This document shows, piece by piece, positions 247 to 57,234 of a stretch of 64,000 nucleotides of DNA; the stretch's first letter is position 1, and every line of letters starts with the position of its first letter. The stretch comes from an uncultured bacterium (GTDB lineage Bacteria; Edwardsbacteria; AC1; EtOH8), in assembly GCA_964518765.1 (NCBI GenBank), contig CAZFJC010000009.1:29584-93583 (forward strand). The letters run 5' to 3'. A program made the translations under genes and the position numbers. Under the pieces are notes generated by a model that made no database searches, had not been told where the DNA came from, and was given only the letters and a program-made list of their open reading frames with translations.

Positions 247-1891
<1,645 letters not shown>

Positions 1892-29411: not shown

Positions 29412-31199
29412 TTAGCTTTCGGAGGGCTTCCGGATCGCCAGGCCCAGCTCCTCGAGCTGCCTGGGGTCGACCGCCGACGGTGCCCCCTCCATCAGGCCCG
29501 AGCCCGAGGTGGTCTTGGGGAAGGCGATAACGTCCCGGATGCTCTCCGATCCTGTCATCAGGGCCACCAGCCGGTCCACACCCGGCGCGATGCCGCCGTG
29601 GGGCGGCGCGCCGCACTCGAAGGCCTCCAGCAGGAACCCGAACTTTTTCTGGGCCTCCTCCGGAGAAAGCCCCACCACCCTCATCACCCGCTCCTGGATG
29701 TCCCGGCGGTGAATGCGGATCGAGCCCGAGGCCAACTCGGAGCCGTTGCATACCAAGTCGTAGAGCTGCCCCAGCACCTTGCCGGGGTCGGTCTCCAGGT
29801 ACTGCAGGTGATCCTCCCTGGGCATGGAGAACATATGGTGCTCGGCCTCCCAGGCCTTGGCCTCCTCGTTGTACTTGAATAATGGGAAATCGGTGATCCA
29901 GCCGAAGGCGTACTGTTCCTTGGGAATCATATTCAGCTGCTTGGCCAGCTCCAGCCGCAACGCCCCCAAAGCCTGGCAGGCTTTTTCCGGCTTATCGGCC
30001 ACGATGAGGACAGTCCTCTCCTCCCCGCCGCCGGCCGCCTGCAGGATGCCCTCGGCCGCCCCGCCCATGATGTGCTTGGCGATTGGCCCCTCCAGCTTTT
30101 CGGCCGTGCCCCGCAGCCAGGCCAGGCCCGAGGCGCCCAGGGATTTTACCAGGGCGGTGTGCCTGTCCACCTGGCTGCGGGAGAGCACCGCCGGGACGCA
30201 CAGGCACTTGGCCGCGCCGCCGGCCTCGATCACCTTGCGGAACGGCTCGAAATCGGACCGGCCGGCCGGTTCGGTGACGTCGACTATCTCCAGGCCGAAA
30301 CGCATGTCAGGCTTGTCCGAGCCGAACCGGGCCATGGCCTCGGCATAGGTCAGCCTGGGGAACGGAGTCTGAATGCTGACCCCGAAAACCTCGGCCAGCA
30401 CCTTCGAATACATCTCCTCCACCAGGGCGAAGACGGCCTCCTGGTCGGCGAAGCTCAACTCGATGTCTATCTGCGAGTGCTCGGGCTGGCGATCGGCCCT
30501 CAGGTCCTCGTCGCGCAGGCAGCGGGCGATCTGGAAATATTTATCGAACCCGGCCACCATCAGGATCTGCTTGTAGATCTGGGGCGACTGGGGCAAAGCG
30601 TAGAATTTGCCCGGCTGGGTGCGGCAGGGCACCAGGTAGTCCCGGGCGCCCTCGGGCGTGCTGCGGGTTAAAAGCGGGGTCTCTATCTCCAGGAAGCCCC
30701 GCTCATGAAGGAACTTACGTATTTCGAATAGGAATTTGTGCCTGAGCTCAATTTTCCTGGCCAGAGACGGCCGCCGCAGGTCCAGGTAGCGGTGCTTGAG
30801 CCTGAGCTCCTCCGAGGCGTTGGTATTATCCTCGATGGCGAACGGCGGCACTTTCGACTCGTTCAAAACCTTCAATTCCTTTACCAACACCTCGACGTCG
30901 CCGGTCGGCATCCTGGGGTTGGCCTGGCCCTGCGGCCGCTCCCGCACCACCCCTTTGACCGCCACCACGAACTCGGAGCGCAGCTCCGCGGCCCGGTCCG
31001 CCAGCTCCTTGTCGGCGGTGGGGTCGAAGACGGCCTGTACCACTCCGTAGCGATCGCGCAGGGTGACGAACAGCAGCCCGCCGAAATTGCGGGAGTGGTG
31101 CACCCAGCCGAAAAGGGTCGCCTCCTTGCCGGCGTCGGATTTGCGAAGCTCGCCGCAGGTGTGGGTGCGGGACCAGGCTGATAAGGAATCGAGTTTCAT
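29412..31199 (-). CDS. aspS: aspartate--tRNA ligase
   Basis: [10 protein letters not shown]-terminus; OB fold; class II motifs; [14 protein letters not shown] motif 3. Confidence 0.95.
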
Positions 31200-31200
31200 A

Positions 31201-32001
31201 TTACTCTTTTCTGAGCGAGAAATTCACCGGATACATTATCCATACTCGCACCGGCTTTCCGCCAGGCGCTAAAGCGGGGGTGAACAACATCTGTTTGCAT
31301 GCGTCAACAGCTGCCTTGTCCAGCAAAGAACTGCCTGAACTCTTTTCCACCTCGGCACGCATTACCTTTCCGTCCAGATCTAGAAGCAAGGTCAGATACA
31401 CTTTTCCCTGGATGCCGGCCGCTATGGCTTTTTCTGGGAAAACAACTTTAGCGTTCCTGATGATTTCAGGTTCTTTTTCAATGGGAACGTATGCGCCTTT
31501 ATCCGGTATTTCTTTAATTTCCGACTCCAAAGGGCTTTTTATTATCATCCTATCGAGTATGTTTTCTTTTTCCTTTTCATGAAGATACGTGCTATCGATT
31601 TTTCTAGTACTATCTTTTTTCCCCAGATAAGATGGTGTTGCGACCATGTCATTCTTTTCGTTACCTTTTTTTATCTGCCTTAAAGGCACATCCCATACTA
31701 AATCTTTTCCTCTTTCCAATTCGTAGCTGAAGTTATAAAGCTGGTATCCTTCTTTTCTCATCTGCGCTTTATAAAAACCAGATTTTAACTTAAGGGTACA
31801 AGGCGTTACCCCCATCTTCTTACCCAGTATTATAACATCAGCCCCCAATGGATCGCTTATAAAAACCATTGTGCAAATCATCGCAGCATCGGTAATCTTC
31901 CTGGAGCTTGGTGTTGCTTTTTCCCTCGCCTCTTTTGAAAGCTTGGCTTGCGCCACTGCCACAACAACCAGTAAAATGATAGCCAATAAACGTTTTTTCA
32001 C
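31201..32001 (-). CDS. secreted PEGA-domain plus TonB_C-domain protein (TonB C-terminal domain paralog without an N-terminal TM anchor)
   Basis: Signal peptide [19 protein letters not shown]; PEGA motif [18 protein letters not shown]; C-terminus similar to the TonB at 2714..3529; the gene is conspicuously AT-rich. Confidence 0.65.
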
Positions 32002-32022
32002 GTGCTCTGCCTTTTGGGTGCT

Positions 32023-32373
32023 TTAGTTGCTTTCATCCCAAACCTCGTAGGCCCTCCGCAGGTGCGGTATCACTATCGACCCGCCCACCACCAGGGCCAC
32101 GTTCATCACCTCGTCGAACTCGGCCTGGGTGACCCCGGCCTTTTTGCACTGCAGCACGTGGTAGGTGACGCAGTCCTGGCAGCGCAGCACCAGCGAGGCA
32201 CACAGCCCCAGCATCTCCTTGGTCCTAGCCGGCAGGGCGCCGTCCTTGTAGGCCGCCTCGTCCAGGTTGAAGAACCGCTTAAGGCCCAGGTGGCCCGAGG
32301 CCAGCACCCGCTTGTTCATGCGTGAGCGGTACGCCTCGAAATCCTTAATCTTATTTGCCATTTTTCGCCGCAA
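32023..32373 (-). CDS. carboxymuconolactone decarboxylase / AhpD-like family protein
   Basis: CxxC-containing AhpD core (CQDCVTYHV). Confidence 0.7.
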   Translation of the reverse strand: MRRKMANKIKDFEAYRSRMNKRVLASGHLGLKRFFNLDEAAYKDGALPARTKEMLGLCASLVLRCQDCVTYHVLQCKKAGVTQAEFDEVMNVALVVGGSIVIPHLRRAYEVWDESN

Positions 32374-32389
32374 AAAACGTACTTGGTTG

Positions 32390-32815
32390 CTATTGTTGCC
32401 ATTTATCGGGACCTAACCCCTCTATCCCCTTCCCTCGAGGGAAGGGGCGGGGTAATGTTAGTCTCTTATGATAATTCATGATTTTCTTTAAAACTCTCTC
32501 AAGGTCATTCACAACCTCATCGTTGCTGAAACGCCAGACGACGATGTCCTGGGTCTTTATTATCCTGTCCCTTTCCCTATTGTAATCCTTCTGCTTTTCA
32601 TGAACCCCGCCATCTATCTCTATCACCAATTTCAATTTGCTGCAATAGAAATCAGCAATAAAACCATCGATTATCTGCTGCCTGCGAAAATGCAGGCCAT
32701 TTAACCTATTATCCTTGACTGCAAGCCAAAAAGCATTTTCCGCCGGAGTCATTGACTTTCTATACTTTTGGGCCAGAGCCAGTTTGGTCCGAGTATATCG
32801 CTGATTGCGGATCAT
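32390..32815 (-). CDS. DUF559 (Vsr/PD-(D/E)xK-like endonuclease fold) protein, AT-rich; its C-terminus reads through a GC palindrome
   Basis: DUF559-like motifs (DFYC..KLVIEIDGGVH); the last ~15 codons are encoded by the flanking repeat. Confidence 0.65.
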   Translation of the reverse strand: MIRNQRYTRTKLALAQKYRKSMTPAENAFWLAVKDNRLNGLHFRRQQIIDGFIADFYCSKLKLVIEIDGGVHEKQKDYNRERDRIIKTQDIVVWRFSNDEVVNDLERVLKKIMNYHKRLTLPRPFPRGKGIEGLGPDKWQQ

Positions 32816-32881
32816 TTTTCTTACCTATCCCCCTGACCCCCTTCCCTCGAGGGAAGGGGGAGTAAAAGGGGGTTAGGTTCT
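32408..32881. mobile_element. small cassette of about 470 bp: imperfect terminal inverted repeats GGACCTAACCCCT...CCCCTTCCCTCGAGGGAAGGGG flanking the DUF559 gene (MITE-like or selfish-endonuclease element)
   Basis: Left 32408-32447 and right 32827-32881 are inverted copies; each contains a perfect 22-24 nt palindrome with a CTCGAG core; the interior is AT-rich, unlike the flanks. Confidence 0.4.
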
Positions 32882-32898
32882 TGAAAGCCTGCAATGCT

Positions 32899-34197
32899 TT
32901 ACCGAGAACGAGCAATGGCCGACTGCAGGTATTTCCCCAAACCTTCGCACTCCACCTTCTCCTGCGAGTTGGCTTTCAGATCCTTCACTATATAATTTCC
33001 GGACGATACCTCATCCTCCCCGATTATCACCGCGAACCGGCTGCCCTTCTTGTCGGCGTACTTGAGCTGCTTGCCCAAAGCGGCCTCCCCGGCGAATACA
33101 TCGCAATTTATCCCGGATTTGCGGATTTCTTCCGCCGCCTCCAGGGCAGCCCGGGCCGCCCCCTTTCCGAAGTGGCAGACGACTACCGGGGCCGCCGGAT
33201 CCTCACCCCCCTTTCCCAGCTCGGCCAGGGCAGCTGTCATCCTATCTATACCGAACGAGGCCCCGGTGGCCGGGACCTGTGTACCCGAGAAGATGCCGAT
33301 CAGCCCGTCGTAGCGACCGCCTCCGGCTATGGAGCCGATCTTGGGCTCCTCCAATTTGACCTCGTACACCGGTCCGGTGTAGTACCCCTGTCCCCGGGCC
33401 AAGCTGGGGCTGAATTGGATCTTCTCTCCAAGGTGGCCGACCAAGTTCAAGAGCTCCTCCATCTCGGCCAGCCCCTTTTTGCCGGCCTCGGTGCCGCCGA
33501 TCATCTTTCCCAGCTCCGCCAGCATGGCCCCGGCTTCACCCGACACCATGATGGCTTTGAGCACGTCTCCGGCCTTGGGGATGCCCCGCCGCTCCAGCTC
33601 GGCCGCCACTCCGTCCTGGCCCACCTTGTCCAGCTTGTCGATGGCGATGATGGCGTCCTTGGACTTGTCCGGCGGCACCCCGGCCGCCTCCAGTATCCCC
33701 TGGAGGACCCGGCGGTGATTTACTACTACTTTATAGCGTTCAAAGCCTGCCTCCCTGGTCCCCTCGTCCAGCACCGAGATCACCTGGGCGTCGGCCAGCA
33801 TGGAGTCCGAGCCCACCGCGTCGAAATCGCACTGGGTGAATTCCCGGTAGCGCCCCTTCTGGGGCTTCTCTGCCCGCCACACCCTCTGAATCTGGTACCT
33901 CTTGAACGGCTTGGGCAGGTCGGGATAGGCGGCCACCACCCGGGCCAGGGGAACGGTTAGATCGTAGATCAGACCCACATGCCGGTCGCCGTGGTCGCGA
34001 AAGTCGTACATCAGCATCTCCGACTCACCGCCCTCCTTGCCGGCCAGGGTGGAGTGGTATTCCAGCGAGGGCGTCTCCAACGGTTCGAACCCGTGGCGCT
34101 GGAACACGCCCTGGATGGCGTCCAGCACCTTGAGGCGGAGCGCCATCTCCCGCGGCAGCAGGTCGCGGAAGCCGGAGAGGACCTGGGGGGCCTTCAT
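32899..34197 (-). CDS. hisS: histidine--tRNA ligase
   Basis: GFRDLLP N-terminus; class II motifs; C-terminal anticodon-binding domain. Confidence 0.95.
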   Translation of the reverse strand: MKAPQVLSGFRDLLPREMALRLKVLDAIQGVFQRHGFEPLETPSLEYHSTLAGKEGGESEMLMYDFRDHGDRHVGLIYDLTVPLARVVAAYPDLPKPFKRYQIQRVWRAEKPQKGRYREFTQCDFDAVGSDSMLADAQVISVLDEGTREAGFERYKVVVNHRRVLQGILEAAGVPPDKSKDAIIAIDKLDKVGQDGVAAELERRGIPKAGDVLKAIMVSGEAGAMLAELGKMIGGTEAGKKGLAEMEELLNLVGHLGEKIQFSPSLARGQGYYTGPVYEVKLEEPKIGSIAGGGRYDGLIGIFSGTQVPATGASFGIDRMTAALAELGKGGEDPAAPVVVCHFGKGAARAALEAAEEIRKSGINCDVFAGEAALGKQLKYADKKGSRFAVIIGEDEVSSGNYIVKDLKANSQEKVECEGLGKYLQSAIARSR

Positions 34198-34565
34198 GGT
34201 GCCGGCTCCACAGTTTTTCTGAAGAATCTTATATGACCAATTATCATACCCGCCATCAAACCCGCGGCATTGAAAAAGAAGTCGGATAGGGAGACCGTCC
34301 TGCCCGGTATGATCTTCTCATGGAGCTCGTCGGCGGCGCCTACCGCCAGGCCGGCCGCGGCTACGGCTATCCAGACGGCCGTGCCTCCCCACTCAGCCAT
34401 CCTCACCGTCCTCAGGCAGAGTATGGCCCAGACCGCGTAAACGGCGAAGTGGAACACCTTGTCGGCGTTCGGCCATTTCGACGTGTCCAGGTTCGGGATG
34501 GAGGTGGCGGCCATCATCAGCCCCAGCCACAGCACCGGAGGCGCCCAGGCGGACAGCCTCTTCAC
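34194..34565 (-). CDS. VanZ-like family membrane protein
   Basis: Four hydrophobic helices; the C-terminal part is VanZ-like; GTG start at about 34565 chosen because the long ORF-track N-terminus (low complexity, R/G/P-rich) looks like overprinting. Confidence 0.45.
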   Translation of the reverse strand: MKRLSAWAPPVLWLGLMMAATSIPNLDTSKWPNADKVFHFAVYAVWAILCLRTVRMAEWGGTAVWIAVAAAGLAVGAADELHEKIIPGRTVSLSDFFFNAAGLMAGMIIGHIRFFRKTVEPAP

Positions 34566-41388: not shown

Positions 41389-41414
41389 GTTGAAAAGTTT
41401 TCATCTAAGCTAAT

Positions 41415-41496
41415 CCCTTTCCCCTTCCCTCCCTTCACCGGCCAAGCTTGCTGTCATCCTTAGGGCAGACTCTGGGAAGGGTCAGGGGTTAGGTCC
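41415..41496. repeat. solo copy of the GGACCTAACCCCT/CCCTTCCC terminal-repeat family (no cargo)
   Basis: GGGAAGGGTCAGGGGTTAGGTCC matches the reverse complement of the DUF559-element end; CCCCTTCCC half-site; interior CTGTCATCCT resembles the 62.7 kb repeat ends. Confidence 0.35.
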
Positions 41497-41501
41497 CAAG
41501 C

Positions 41502-42026
41502 CTACTGCAAACTGCGGTTGCCCCCCTCGGTCTGCACTACCCAATCGAAGGAGAGGGTGATGGAGGTATACTTGCCGTTCTGATTGAGCCCGATGATGGA
41601 TAACCGCCCGTAGTGGGGCACGGCGTCGGTCTTGACGAAATAGCTCTGCCCCAGGACCGCCAGAGCCGAGGTGTTATAGCCGTCGTCCGGAGCCGTGGTT
41701 CCGCTTCCCTCTTGTATGCCGTTGGCCTCGATGAGGCAATTCTGCTGGTCCGGGGATACTATGCTTATCTTGCCGTAATTGTATCCCCCCGAACTGAAGG
41801 TGTAATCGGACCTCCATCCGTTTGTTGCCGAGATGGTCCTGCTGGCCGTTCCGGTGATGACCGTGGTCGCCGGCGCCTCCACCGGGCTCTTGGAGCAGCC
41901 GGCCAGCAGCAAGCTCAGGGCCAACCCGACGGCTACGACAGCGAGTATGCCTAAAAAGGTCGCCCAGGCCCTCCTTCTCCTGGCCGGTGGTCGGGGATAA
42001 CTGCTATTTTCTAATAGTGTTATCAT
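41502..42026 (-). CDS. lipoprotein of unknown function
   Basis: TM/signal segment with lipobox LLLAGCS; Ser/Thr/Gly-rich. Confidence 0.5.
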   Translation of the reverse strand: MITLLENSSYPRPPARRRRAWATFLGILAVVAVGLALSLLLAGCSKSPVEAPATTVITGTASRTISATNGWRSDYTFSSGGYNYGKISIVSPDQQNCLIEANGIQEGSGTTAPDDGYNTSALAVLGQSYFVKTDAVPHYGRLSIIGLNQNGKYTSITLSFDWVVQTEGGNRSLQ

Positions 42027-48417: not shown

Positions 48418-48506
48418 GTTCAGCCTAATGTCCACAGTACTAGTTATCCAGGTGCGGTTGACCACCCCTGTTTCCCTTCCTTGACAAGGAGGGGAGCATG
48501 GGGAGG

Positions 48507-49925
48507 TCAGCAATCGTAGTACAGCTGGAACTCGTAGGGATGCGGCCGCCTGCCCAGCTCCTCGACATCTTTCGATTTCAGATCGATCCAGACCTCAATC
48601 AGGTCCTGGGGAAAGACTCCTCCCTCCAGGAGGAACTGGTGGTCCTTCCGCAGGGCCTCCAAGGCCTCTCCCAGCGAGGTGGGCAGGGTGGGTATTTTGT
48701 CCAGGTCGGCCTTGGACAGGCTGAACAGGTCTTTGTTAAGCGGCCGCCCTGGGTCCAGCTTCCGCTTGATGCCGTCGATGCCGGCCATCAGCATGGCGGC
48801 GAAGGCCAGGTAGGGGTTGCAGGTGGCGTCCGGCGGCCGGAACTCGTAGCGGAAATTCTTGGGGTCGGTCAGGTAGCCGGGGATGCGCACCGCCGCCGTC
48901 CGGTTGCCTACCGAATAGGAGGCCTTAATCGGCGCCTCGTAGCCCGGCACCAGCCGCCGGTAGGAGTTGGTGGAGGGATTGGTGAAGGCCAGCAGGGCCG
49001 GGGCGTGGTGCAGCAGGCCGCCCAGGTAATGGAGGGCCGTCTCCGACATGTTGACCAGCCCGCCCTTCTTGTAGAAGATGGAGTGCCCGCCCCGGGCCAG
49101 GTACTGGTGGACGTGCATGCCGTTGCCCGGCTCCCGGTAGAGCGGCTTGGGCATGAAGGTGGCCGTCAGCCCGGCCTTGATGGCGGCGTTGCGCACCAGG
49201 TGCTTGACCATCATGGTCCGGTCGGCCATCCTGGTCAGGGTGTCGAACATGACCTCGATCTCCACCTGGCCGGCTCCGCCCACCTCGTGGTGGTGGTACT
49301 TGACCGGGATGCCGCACCGCTCCAGGGTGTGGCAGATGTCGGAGCGGAAGTCGAAGAAACGATCGTGGGGGGGGGCGGCGTGGTAGCCGCCCTTGTAGGG
49401 TATCTTGTAGGCCAGGTTGGGCCCCTCGTCCCTTCCGGTGTTCCAATGGGCGCTGGACGAGTCCACTCGGAAGAAGCAATCGTGCGCCTGGTTGTCGTAG
49501 CGCACCGAATCGAAAAGGTAGAACTCGAACTCCGGACCCCAGAAGCTCTCGGTGGCATATCCCGTCTTCAGCAGGTGCCTCTCGGCCTTCTCGGCGATGG
49601 CCCGGGGGTTGCGGACGAATTTTTCGCCGGTGGCCACATCGATGACGTCGCCGATGAAGGTCAGGGTAGGCCTGGCGGCGAAGGGGTCGATGACGGCCGT
49701 CTCCGGGATGGGGATGACGATCATGTCGCCGGCCTTGACCTGGGTGAACCCGGCCACGCTGGAGCCGTCGAAGCCGATGCCCCGCCCCCGCTCGAACAAA
49801 GCGGGCCTGAGCTCGTGGGCCGGCACCGTTATCTGGTGCCACTTACCCAGCAGGTCGCCGAACTTGACGGCTACGAACTCCACCTTGTTCCTGGCAGCAG
49901 AGTTGAATATCTTTTTCAGGTCCAT
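48507..49925 (-). CDS. glnA: glutamine synthetase type I
   Basis: 472 aa; GS beta-grasp and catalytic motifs; adenylylation-region Tyr context. Confidence 0.95.
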   Translation of the reverse strand: MDLKKIFNSAARNKVEFVAVKFGDLLGKWHQITVPAHELRPALFERGRGIGFDGSSVAGFTQVKAGDMIVIPIPETAVIDPFAARPTLTFIGDVIDVATGEKFVRNPRAIAEKAERHLLKTGYATESFWGPEFEFYLFDSVRYDNQAHDCFFRVDSSSAHWNTGRDEGPNLAYKIPYKGGYHAAPPHDRFFDFRSDICHTLERCGIPVKYHHHEVGGAGQVEIEVMFDTLTRMADRTMMVKHLVRNAAIKAGLTATFMPKPLYREPGNGMHVHQYLARGGHSIFYKKGGLVNMSETALHYLGGLLHHAPALLAFTNPSTNSYRRLVPGYEAPIKASYSVGNRTAAVRIPGYLTDPKNFRYEFRPPDATCNPYLAFAAMLMAGIDGIKRKLDPGRPLNKDLFSLSKADLDKIPTLPTSLGEALEALRKDHQFLLEGGVFPQDLIEVWIDLKSKDVEELGRRPHPYEFQLYYDC

Positions 49926-54866: not shown

Positions 54867-54880
54867 AAACTTAAAACCTC

Positions 54881-54935
54881 TCCCTGTCTCCCTCCCCTCG
54901 AGGGGAGGGACGTCCGAGCAGGACAGGGAGAGGTC
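54881..54935 (-). terminator. nested GC palindrome (CTCCCTGTC..CTCCCCTCGAGGGGAG..GACAGGGAG) downstream of hppA; hairpin or terminator candidate related to the CCCTCGAGGG palindrome family
   Basis: Perfect 16-nt palindrome around a CTCGAG core inside a longer inverted repeat; no clear U-run. Confidence 0.35.
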
Positions 54936-54945
54936 CTCGGTTTCA

Positions 54946-57234
<2,289 letters not shown>

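Follow-up and report, generated by a model that had tools for sequence, protein, structure and literature searches.

A gene for a small protein of the DUF559 family, bracketed by palindromic repeats in a stretch of 64,000 nucleotides from an uncultured bacterium of the Edwardsbacteria (contig CAZFJC010000009.1; the whole stretch is hereafter called the window), was found to exemplify a solid association, observed across bacterial phyla, between DUF559 genes and BoxC/PIT/intrastrand triplex motif (TM) repeats. In the reading that we favour, with evenly balanced confidence, DUF559 proteins would be the nuclease partners of TM repeats, as the REP-associated tyrosine transposases (RAYTs) are of repetitive extragenic palindromes (REPs), and the window would hold one instance of a widespread partnership. 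No published link of DUF559, Vsr or ycjD to palindromic repeats, miniature inverted-repeat transposable elements (MITEs) or triplexes was found in the searchable literature, and the pairing of gene and repeat appears to be undescribed.

DUF559 genes and triplex-motif repeats across phyla

In many homologs of unrelated lineage the protein terminates in a tail such as PTPPSPRGEGLREGS or PSPGLPGEGQG, a translated CCCC...GGGG palindrome, and it was these repeat-encoded tails that first pointed to a general pairing. Eighty loci were fetched, one genome per species, encoding homologs 38-54% identical to the window protein, with 20-kb flanks available for the survey. The hosts belong to the Cyanobacteria, Chloroflexota, Planctomycetota, Armatimonadota, Spirochaetota, Bacteroidota, Edwardsbacteria, Raymondbacteria, Peribacteria, Margulisbacteria and other phyla. 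With hairpins defined as a pyrimidine arm followed by a purine arm, with a stem of at least 9, at most one mismatch and a loop of at most 6, a survey of 88 loci (1.17 Mb, 90 DUF559 genes) yielded 268-280 hairpins. These C-arm/G-arm hairpins numbered 197 within 250 nt of the 90 genes (4.31 per kb) and 83 in the other 1.13 Mb (0.074 per kb), a 58-fold enrichment near the genes, whereas all other hairpins were unenriched (1.03 per kb near DUF559 genes against 0.94 per kb elsewhere). By a strict rule, 48 of the 75 genes with enough flank had such hairpins on both sides, 15 on one side and 12 on neither, several of these 12 having looser versions. Significant similarity between the two flanks was found for 66 of 73 genes (approximately 90%).

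The ranking of the 80 loci weighs against a general partnership, since the query included the repeat-encoded tail and may have favoured repeat-flanked genes; independent samples (a tail-less plasmid query, E. coli and Enterobacter) were therefore checked. With the tail-less query, all seven distinct plasmid loci carried such hairpins, two each in Picosynechococcus, Synechocystis and Pseudanabaena and one in Sinorhizobium.

Judged by their sequence, the repeats of the window are not new but belong to the BoxC/PIT/TM class, whose members were listed in E. coli from the 1990s on and later in hundreds of genomes. Earlier work on BoxC/PIT is reportedly that of Bachellier et al. in the 1990s and of Hoyne, Maher et al. 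in 2000. The published TM pattern is CCCTCNCCC N3-6 GGGNGAGGG N3 GGGNGAGGG, and BoxC/PIT repeats were described as intrastrand triplex motifs (Holder et al. 2015, PMC4666352). That survey counted 3610 copies in 262 proteobacterial genomes, along with many G/C-rich motifs in Microcystis, Anabaena and Nostoc, and found no transposase, integrase or other mobility function near TMs; E. coli K-12 has 23 copies, five as inverted pairs, at loci of raised variability (PMC4666352). TM_ECO is abundant in E. coli and Enterobacter asburiae/cloacae and absent in Salmonella; it forms a triplex in vitro, dimethyl sulphate (DMS) footprinting in vivo gave no protection, and polymerases stall at TMs in vitro, the loci that TMs mark being unstable (PMC4666352).

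Counting G·G, A·A and T·A as purine-motif triads, an adjacent third block that obeys the triad rules over at least 8 positions was present at 192 of 268 hairpins, against 19 of 268 with random flanks. Both palindromes flanking the window gene pass this test, as do the solo elements at 48473 and 54889, with 9-10 permitted triads beside these four, and the 'arms' of the units are the third-strand blocks. The multiple dispersed copies characteristic of the class are likewise present, with five in the window and the 83 away from genes in the 1.13 Mb surveyed.

The window cassette and its relatives

The DUF559 ORF (32390..32815, minus strand) encodes 141 amino acids and has a Vsr-fold, PD-(D/E)xK-like domain at residues 12-114, where the Pfam profile PF04480 matched with E=1.2e-32 (112.5 bits against a cut-off of 20.6). 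It matched the solved DUF559 protein PDB 3hrl at E=1e-15 and NCBIfam PRK09767 at 59 bits, under the equivalog cut-off of 218 of that model; the only other domain match was a weak one to REase_MTES_1575. The family is of unknown function in Pfam and NCBIfam, and many homologs are annotated by JGI as 'very-short-patch-repair endonuclease'. The gene has a GC content of 42%, against 62% for the remaining window, a deficit of 21 points. It lies upstream of a CMD/AhpD-like gene (32023..32373) and downstream of hisS (32899..34197), both on the minus strand. An earlier note on this DNA had described an AT-rich gene of Vsr-like fold between an AhpD-like gene and hisS, with its final codons supplied by the left repeat; profile, PDB and Foldseek matches, composition and coordinates bear all of this out. 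Residues 119-141 (LTLPRPFPRGKGIEGLGPDKWQQ) are read-through into the downstream (left) repeat and 16 nt past it.

The left, gene-downstream repeat consists of an outer arm, GGACCTAACCCC (32409..32420), a perfect 22-nt palindrome, CCCCTTCCCTCGAGGGAAGGGG (32426..32447), in which a pyrimidine arm precedes a purine arm about a CTCGAG centre, and a degenerate inner arm, CGGGGTAATGTTAG (32448..32461), recognised by sequence reading and giving weak extra pairing in the DNA fold. Read on the minus strand, the outer arm is GGGGTTAGGTCC, a 'third-strand' block that mirrors the G-rich hairpin arm with 9 permitted purine-motif triads, one mismatch being allowed. The right, gene-upstream repeat has an inner C-rich arm, ACCTATCCCCC (32823..32833; 10 triads), ending 9 nt before the ATG, a perfect 24-nt palindrome, CCCCCTTCCCTCGAGGGAAGGGGG (32837..32860), that contains the 22-nt CCCCTTCCCTCGAGGGAAGGGG at 32838-32859, and an outer G-rich arm, GGGGGTTAGGTTC (32868..32880), a third-strand block with 10 permitted triads that ends 19 nt after the hisS stop. 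Perfect CTCGAG palindromes of 22-24 nt on both sides of the gene are thus present as the earlier note had read them. The outer arms are inverted, with GGACCTAACCCC at 32409-32420 on the plus strand and GAACCTAACCCC at 32869-32880 on the minus strand. Taken whole, either flanking unit forms a longer imperfect hairpin. That on the right (32823-32878) spans 56 nt and folds with -19.8 kcal/mol and z = -3.15; as this unit has arms on both sides, the window pair reads as direct and as inverted about equally well.

The cassette (32409-32880) measures 472 bp, and its removal would leave approximately 54 nt from the hisS stop to the start of the next gene. It looks like a comparatively recent acquisition put in between hisS and the AhpD-like gene. 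No target-site duplication was visible at 32409/32880, no relevant family was returned by an Rfam scan of 31000-34500 and the promoter scan gave no promoter for the DUF559 gene. Two genes downstream of the cassette, a TonB_C/PEGA-domain gene (31201-32001) is also strongly AT-rich, at 36-45% GC; it may be a second foreign segment, since the 62%-GC AhpD-like gene parts it from the cassette.

The palindrome core pattern has three matches in the window against 0.02 expected by chance, and five repeat elements were identified in total, two flanking and three solo. The solo element at 54876..54934 comprises ACCTCTCCCTGTC, the palindrome TCCCTCCCCTCGAGGGGAGGGA (54889-54910), an 11-nt bulge and GACAGGGAGAGGT, folds with -23.6 kcal/mol and z = -4.62, and lies 12 nt from the stop of a minus-strand ORF (54946..57234). 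The related palindrome that had been placed at about 54890..54910 is therefore real and is nested in this larger hairpin. The element at 48460..48508 was overlooked by the earlier note; it has GACCACCCC, then the hairpin TCCCTTCCTTGaCAAGGAGGGGA, then GGGGAGGTC, with 8-9 triads on both sides and z = -3.49, and abuts the stop of a minus-strand ORF (48507..49925). The weakest member, at 41410..41496, consists of CTAATCCC.. / CCCTTCCC as the stem, a 44-nt loop, GGGAAGGG, TCA and GGGGTTAGGTCC; it is intergenic, 6 nt from the stop of a minus-strand ORF (41502..42026), and its fold z-score is just -0.8. It had been taken for a cargo-less copy of the cassette end at 41415..41496; the outer arm (41485-41496) and the CCCTTCCC/GGGAAGGG stem are indeed common to both, whereas the 44-nt loop makes it only loosely similar.

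The four repeat-bearing spots of the window (32880-32899, 41496-41502, 48507-48508 and 54934-54946) all lie 0-20 nt past the stop of a minus-strand gene, which suggests that the repeats prefer, or are tolerated at, gene 3' ends. This placement is also what speaks for taking the palindromes as ordinary terminators or generic REP-like filler, present by coincidence, and the window arms ACCTAAC / GTTAGGT fit by eye the attC core consensus of an integron-type cassette, RYYYAAC / GTTRRRY. Either explanation is highly improbable, being contradicted by the two-sided enrichment across phyla and by the variability of the arms. None of the window elements was scored in an intrinsic terminator scan, because they have no T tract, and the palindromes have solo relatives in the window; repeats unique to the locus and acting as simple terminators, the case that the earlier note had set against its own proposal, were not what was found. 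As regards attC, the AAC/GTT positions of the arms vary in other loci (CT, CA, AT, CAT), which is not tolerable for such a site, and the window neighbours are housekeeping genes (hisS, aspS-like) with no cassette array or integrase.

In a typical unit of the surveyed loci, one to three hairpins (CCCCTTCCCT...AGGGAAGGGG, CCCCTCTCCT...AGGAGAGGGG and the like) stand between an outer arm (GACCTnnCCCC) and a closing arm (GGGGnnAGGTC). Inverted outer arms around the whole gene were present at 35 of 56 loci, with lengths of 16-19 nt in L016, L067 and L075 and approximately 60 nt in L065, and in Cyanobacteria and several other groups the gene has a complete unit of 85-200 nt on either side, in direct orientation. 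The constant trait is the duplication of a hairpin-containing segment on either side of the gene. Gene-less units are present in the flanks of many loci, and solo elements of two hairpins with a spacer occur as well, e.g. in L048. Candidatus Edwardsbacteria DeMMO3_1 (L013, L036) carries three divergent DUF559 paralogs, each with its own arm type (GACCTCACCCC; GAACACACCCCT; GACCCCTCCC / GGGGTTGGGTC).

The exact 22-mer of the window is present in at least 120 metagenome stretches. On soil metagenome contigs (L090-L169) it mostly lies within one asymmetric unit that hardly varies, AACCTAACCCCTAA-palindrome-AACAATCGCG, which points to a family of very large size and recent origin in an abundant lineage of soil bacteria; no DUF559 gene cognate to this family was found. 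One soil contig (L139:645-1738) has an IS481-type DDE transposase ORF (675..1616, minus strand) exactly between two inverted 22-nt palindromes with arms, which looks like an insertion sequence (IS) that landed in a TM pair. Another metagenome TM pair lies in the rnpA-yidD-yidC spacers, and the metagenome loci gave no second gene family as cargo between TM pairs.

Fold, mobility and the ycjD locus

The AlphaFold model of the window protein (pLDDT 76) has a disordered repeat-encoded tail and a predicted Vsr-like fold close to that of the homing endonuclease I-Bth0305I. The best Foldseek match was 3hrl (E=2e-7, rmsd 2.1 Å), followed by the I-Bth0305I catalytic domain (3r3p; E=3e-4, template-modelling score 0.70 on the target, 21-22% identity). 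An alignment of 25 homologs has 27 invariant columns, including D55, E66, D68 and H72, and the window protein has all 27. Folding the protein and inspecting its nuclease residues, a check put forward in the earlier note, thus returned a nuclease fold with intact conserved acidic and histidine residues, for which catalysis is predicted. Membership of the Vsr repair system was rejected: no Vsr profile appeared among the matches listed, and the adjacent genes encode HisRS and a CMD-family protein.

Four features support the evolutionary mobility of gene and repeats as a unit. The closest homologs of the window protein (70-72% amino acid identity) occur in unrelated neighbourhoods, three of the assemblies breaking just past the gene. 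Gene GC content tracks that of the host throughout the family (r = 0.87, mean -6 points), and the window gene, at -21, is among the most deviant. When cyanobacterial species are compared, their DNA is similar over the unit, from about -190 to +115 relative to the domain, and no further. Lastly, a 1621-amino-acid ORF for a PglX-type methylase on plasmid pPg_02 of Pseudanabaena galeata (L222:1047-5912) has an in-frame block of TM pair, DUF559 gene and TM pair together with two further inserts of TM only, whereas the PglX homologs of Aulosira and Azospirillum (61-64% amino acid identity) run on without inserts. On cyanobacterial plasmids (L222, L088, L089, L217, L218) the TM-DUF559-TM cassette was seen in or beside defence loci (DUF499/DUF1156, BREX PglX).

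These data bear on the possibility that DUF559 is a free-standing selfish gene resembling a homing endonuclease, which would cut gene-less repeats and be copied into them by repair, the TM repeats being landing sites only and spreading by an unrelated route. The fold closest after DUF559 itself is that of I-Bth0305I, and the gene always lies between duplicated hairpin-bearing parts of a repeat, as would be expected if it had been copied into one; the solo two-hairpin elements with a spacer, the PglX cassette beside TM-only insertions in the same ORF and the non-syntenic positions of the closest homologs would also fit. This reading is nevertheless unlikely. No pair of filled and empty but otherwise identical sites was found; for the window locus, exact-protein look-ups with the DUF559 and AhpD-like proteins gave three short contigs, all with the cassette and none an empty site. 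Copies within a genome are few and divergent, with no near-identical gene copies at different loci and paralogs at most 72% identical in DNA, unlike active homing with hundreds of targets. The family is almost absent from phages (2 of 50,697 records) and plasmids (9 of 72,556), and the lower TM counts of ycjD-less E. coli, given below, would be left unexplained. The mobile or homing-like mini-element with a REP-like palindrome family that the earlier note had envisaged has accordingly stood in one part, a nuclease gene with REP-like repeats, which generalises well beyond the window, whereas homing and transposition are unproven.

In E. coli K-12, ycjD is followed by CCCCTCGCCCCTCTGGGGAGAGGGTTAGGGTGAGGGG, which was recognised as BoxC (backed by PMC4666352). 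The 3' end of ycjD is a decayed motif, and TM_ECO #9 (1,351,239-1,351,204) lies 168 nt downstream on the same strand; the published entry for TM_ECO #9 makes no mention of ycjD (PMC4666352). From the ycjD stop to TM_ECO #9 (L210:7250-7410), a partial duplicate of the ycjD 3' end of approximately 50 nt is followed by GGGTTAGGGG, and resembles what a second copy or a recombination event might leave behind. A homolog in Enterobacter asburiae, 62% identical, occupies a different locus, where its neighbours are yggW-like and yggN-like, and its end is formed by a complete pair of type B and type A TMs. Among the best 120 clusters of 2697 matches, named YcjD homologs were from Escherichia, Shigella, Enterobacter asburiae/cloacae, Kluyvera and others and none was named Salmonella, a parallel to the published TM_ECO distribution that is weak evidence because it covers only those best 120.

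The ycjD gene was present in 3378 of 5426 complete E. coli genomes. It lies between sapF and fabI in phylogroups A/B1/C, other phylogroups carrying eefRABCD there (PMC12817139). In a spread sample of 59 genomes, the 37 with the ycjD locus had 14-30 TM-like places (mean 22) and the 22 without it had 2-20 (mean 9; Mann-Whitney p = 8e-10), a contrast that follows phylogroups and therefore reflects few independent events.

A putative nuclease partner of the repeats

We infer that the DUF559 protein acts on the repeats, in the following manner. As a small, Mg-dependent endonuclease of Vsr fold, it would recognise them either as duplex sequence or as an extruded hairpin or triplex and would nick or cut them. 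Host repair of the breaks, by gene conversion from other copies, fill-in or illegitimate joining, would copy, replace and reshuffle the repeats and could thereby sustain solo copies as a family, in much the way that RAYT sustains REP/REPIN elements. The gene itself would persist, and at times move, through being embedded between two copies of its own substrate: the flanking copies would provide homology for copying it into other repeat sites by conversion, while recombination between identical palindromes would delete it and leave a solo repeat.

A number of observations weigh against this partnership, in addition to the ranking of the loci and the few independent events in E. coli mentioned above. 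The layout of the units is not fixed, since among 73 genes the flanking repeats were direct at 29, inverted at 27, palindrome-only at 10 and absent at 7; the inverted-repeat-bounded cassette of the earlier note accordingly describes the outer arms of the window but is not the rule across loci. Third blocks face outward more often than inward, although both occur, and no target-site duplication was seen. Synteny of the genes is kept within genera, the paralogs of a single genome have diverged and differ in arm type, and there is no sign of recent bursts. Of 80 listed metagenome loci with the exact 22-mer, 78 had no DUF559 gene nearby, which is expected for solo copies and yet means that the repeats need no gene in cis. 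E. coli genomes lacking ycjD still have as many as 20 TM-like places. The one TM polymorphism of E. coli that was examined, in the adk-hemH spacer (L211:380-540 compared with L212 and L213), is a block replacement and not a clean insertion: K-12 has a 155-nt block with TM_ECO #6, a form present in approximately 2900 of 5426 genomes, where O157:H7 and strain ECO20 have an unrelated 51-nt block with its own hairpin. Such a replacement says nothing on the mechanism of insertion. To our knowledge, enzymology exists for no DUF559 protein, and we know of no strand-transfer or ligation activity in a Vsr-fold nuclease of approximately 115 amino acids.

Several of the same observations would suit a host-beneficial role, in which DUF559 is a repair or maintenance nuclease that relieves replication blocks at TM hairpins and triplexes and is not itself mobile, the flanking repeats being regulatory or accumulating where the protein is made. 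Vsr, its fold relative, is a repair nickase; gene GC content follows that of the host, orthologs are syntenic within genera, the family is chromosomal rather than borne by phages or plasmids, and the polymerase stalling and locus instability attributed to TMs would supply a need for it. This role is rather improbable, as it leaves unexplained the two-sided nesting of the gene in repeats at about 90% of loci, the occurrence of close homologs at unrelated loci together with the strong compositional anomaly of the window gene, and a cassette that interrupts another gene.

A nuclease partnership would matter for both members. BoxC/PIT/TM repeats have so far been assigned no function, origin or mobilising activity, and DUF559 is a very large family that includes E. 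coli YcjD; the physical and phyletic link gives gene and repeats each a testable role. In its boldest form, which we advance tentatively and as a possibility, DUF559 would be the missing enzymatic partner of BoxC/PIT/TM in a second, independently evolved symbiosis of the REP-RAYT kind, reaching from E. coli (YcjD) to cyanobacteria and candidate phyla, and would recognise hairpin- or triplex-forming DNA and cause the instability of the repeats. If this were true, the 23 TM sites of K-12 would be the predicted substrate of YcjD in a model organism, a cause would be offered for the instability at TM loci, a hydrolytic Vsr-fold nuclease would be added to the few enzymes by which dispersed repeats are maintained in bacteria, and the common P-x-P...G-x-G tails and in-frame inserts that the repeats add to annotated proteins would be explained.

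The unit may be compared with several known systems. Like MITEs and their autonomous IS, about half of the loci have outer inverted arms, here of 11-60 nt, enclosing the gene, and short gene-less derivatives (arm-hairpin-arm) are far commoner than gene-bearing units; the DUF559 loci differ in their variable layout and in lacking both a target-site duplication and a transposase of the DDE, serine or tyrosine type. A transposon with fixed terminal inverted repeats, or an IS-MITE pair, was rejected as a candidate, direct layouts being as common as inverted ones, with no transposase domain and no duplication at 32409/32880. I-Bth0305I and other Vsr-like (EDxHD) homing endonucleases have the same catalytic fold and the logic of a small selfish gene in common with DUF559, but are found in phage group I introns or inteins and have extra DNA-binding domains, whereas the window gene is free-standing, chromosomal and bracketed by repeats. 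The Vsr very-short-patch repair endonuclease is of the same fold superfamily, but the Pfam family here is DUF559 and the window gene has no adjacent cytosine methyltransferase.

The REP/REPIN-RAYT system likewise combines the gene of a DNA-cleaving enzyme with flanking copies of a short palindromic repeat that is otherwise dispersed without a gene, and is chromosomal and stable at short range, with divergent paralogs and different repeat subtypes in one genome; the DeMMO3_1 paralogs with their distinct arm types recall RAYT paralogs paired to distinct REP families. RAYT, however, is an HUH/Y1 transposase that carries out cleavage and joining on single-stranded hairpins, whereas DUF559 has the fold of a Vsr-type hydrolytic nuclease, and REPs have no third (triplex) block. 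The domains matched in the window protein include no HUH/Y1 domain, and the system is therefore REP-RAYT-like rather than a member of that group. With BoxC/PIT/TM_ECO the window repeats have in common a pyrimidine-rich arm, a short loop, a purine-rich arm and then a mirroring G-rich block (G·G and T·A triads), as well as dispersed, intergenic placement, G/C-richness even in AT-rich hosts, frequent inverted pairing and occurrence at variable loci. The window variant differs from TM_ECO in its loop-less CTCGAG palindrome, its TTAGGT-type block and a second loop of 5-7 nt instead of 3, and, whereas the published repeats were described without an associated gene, those reported here bracket the gene of a nuclease.

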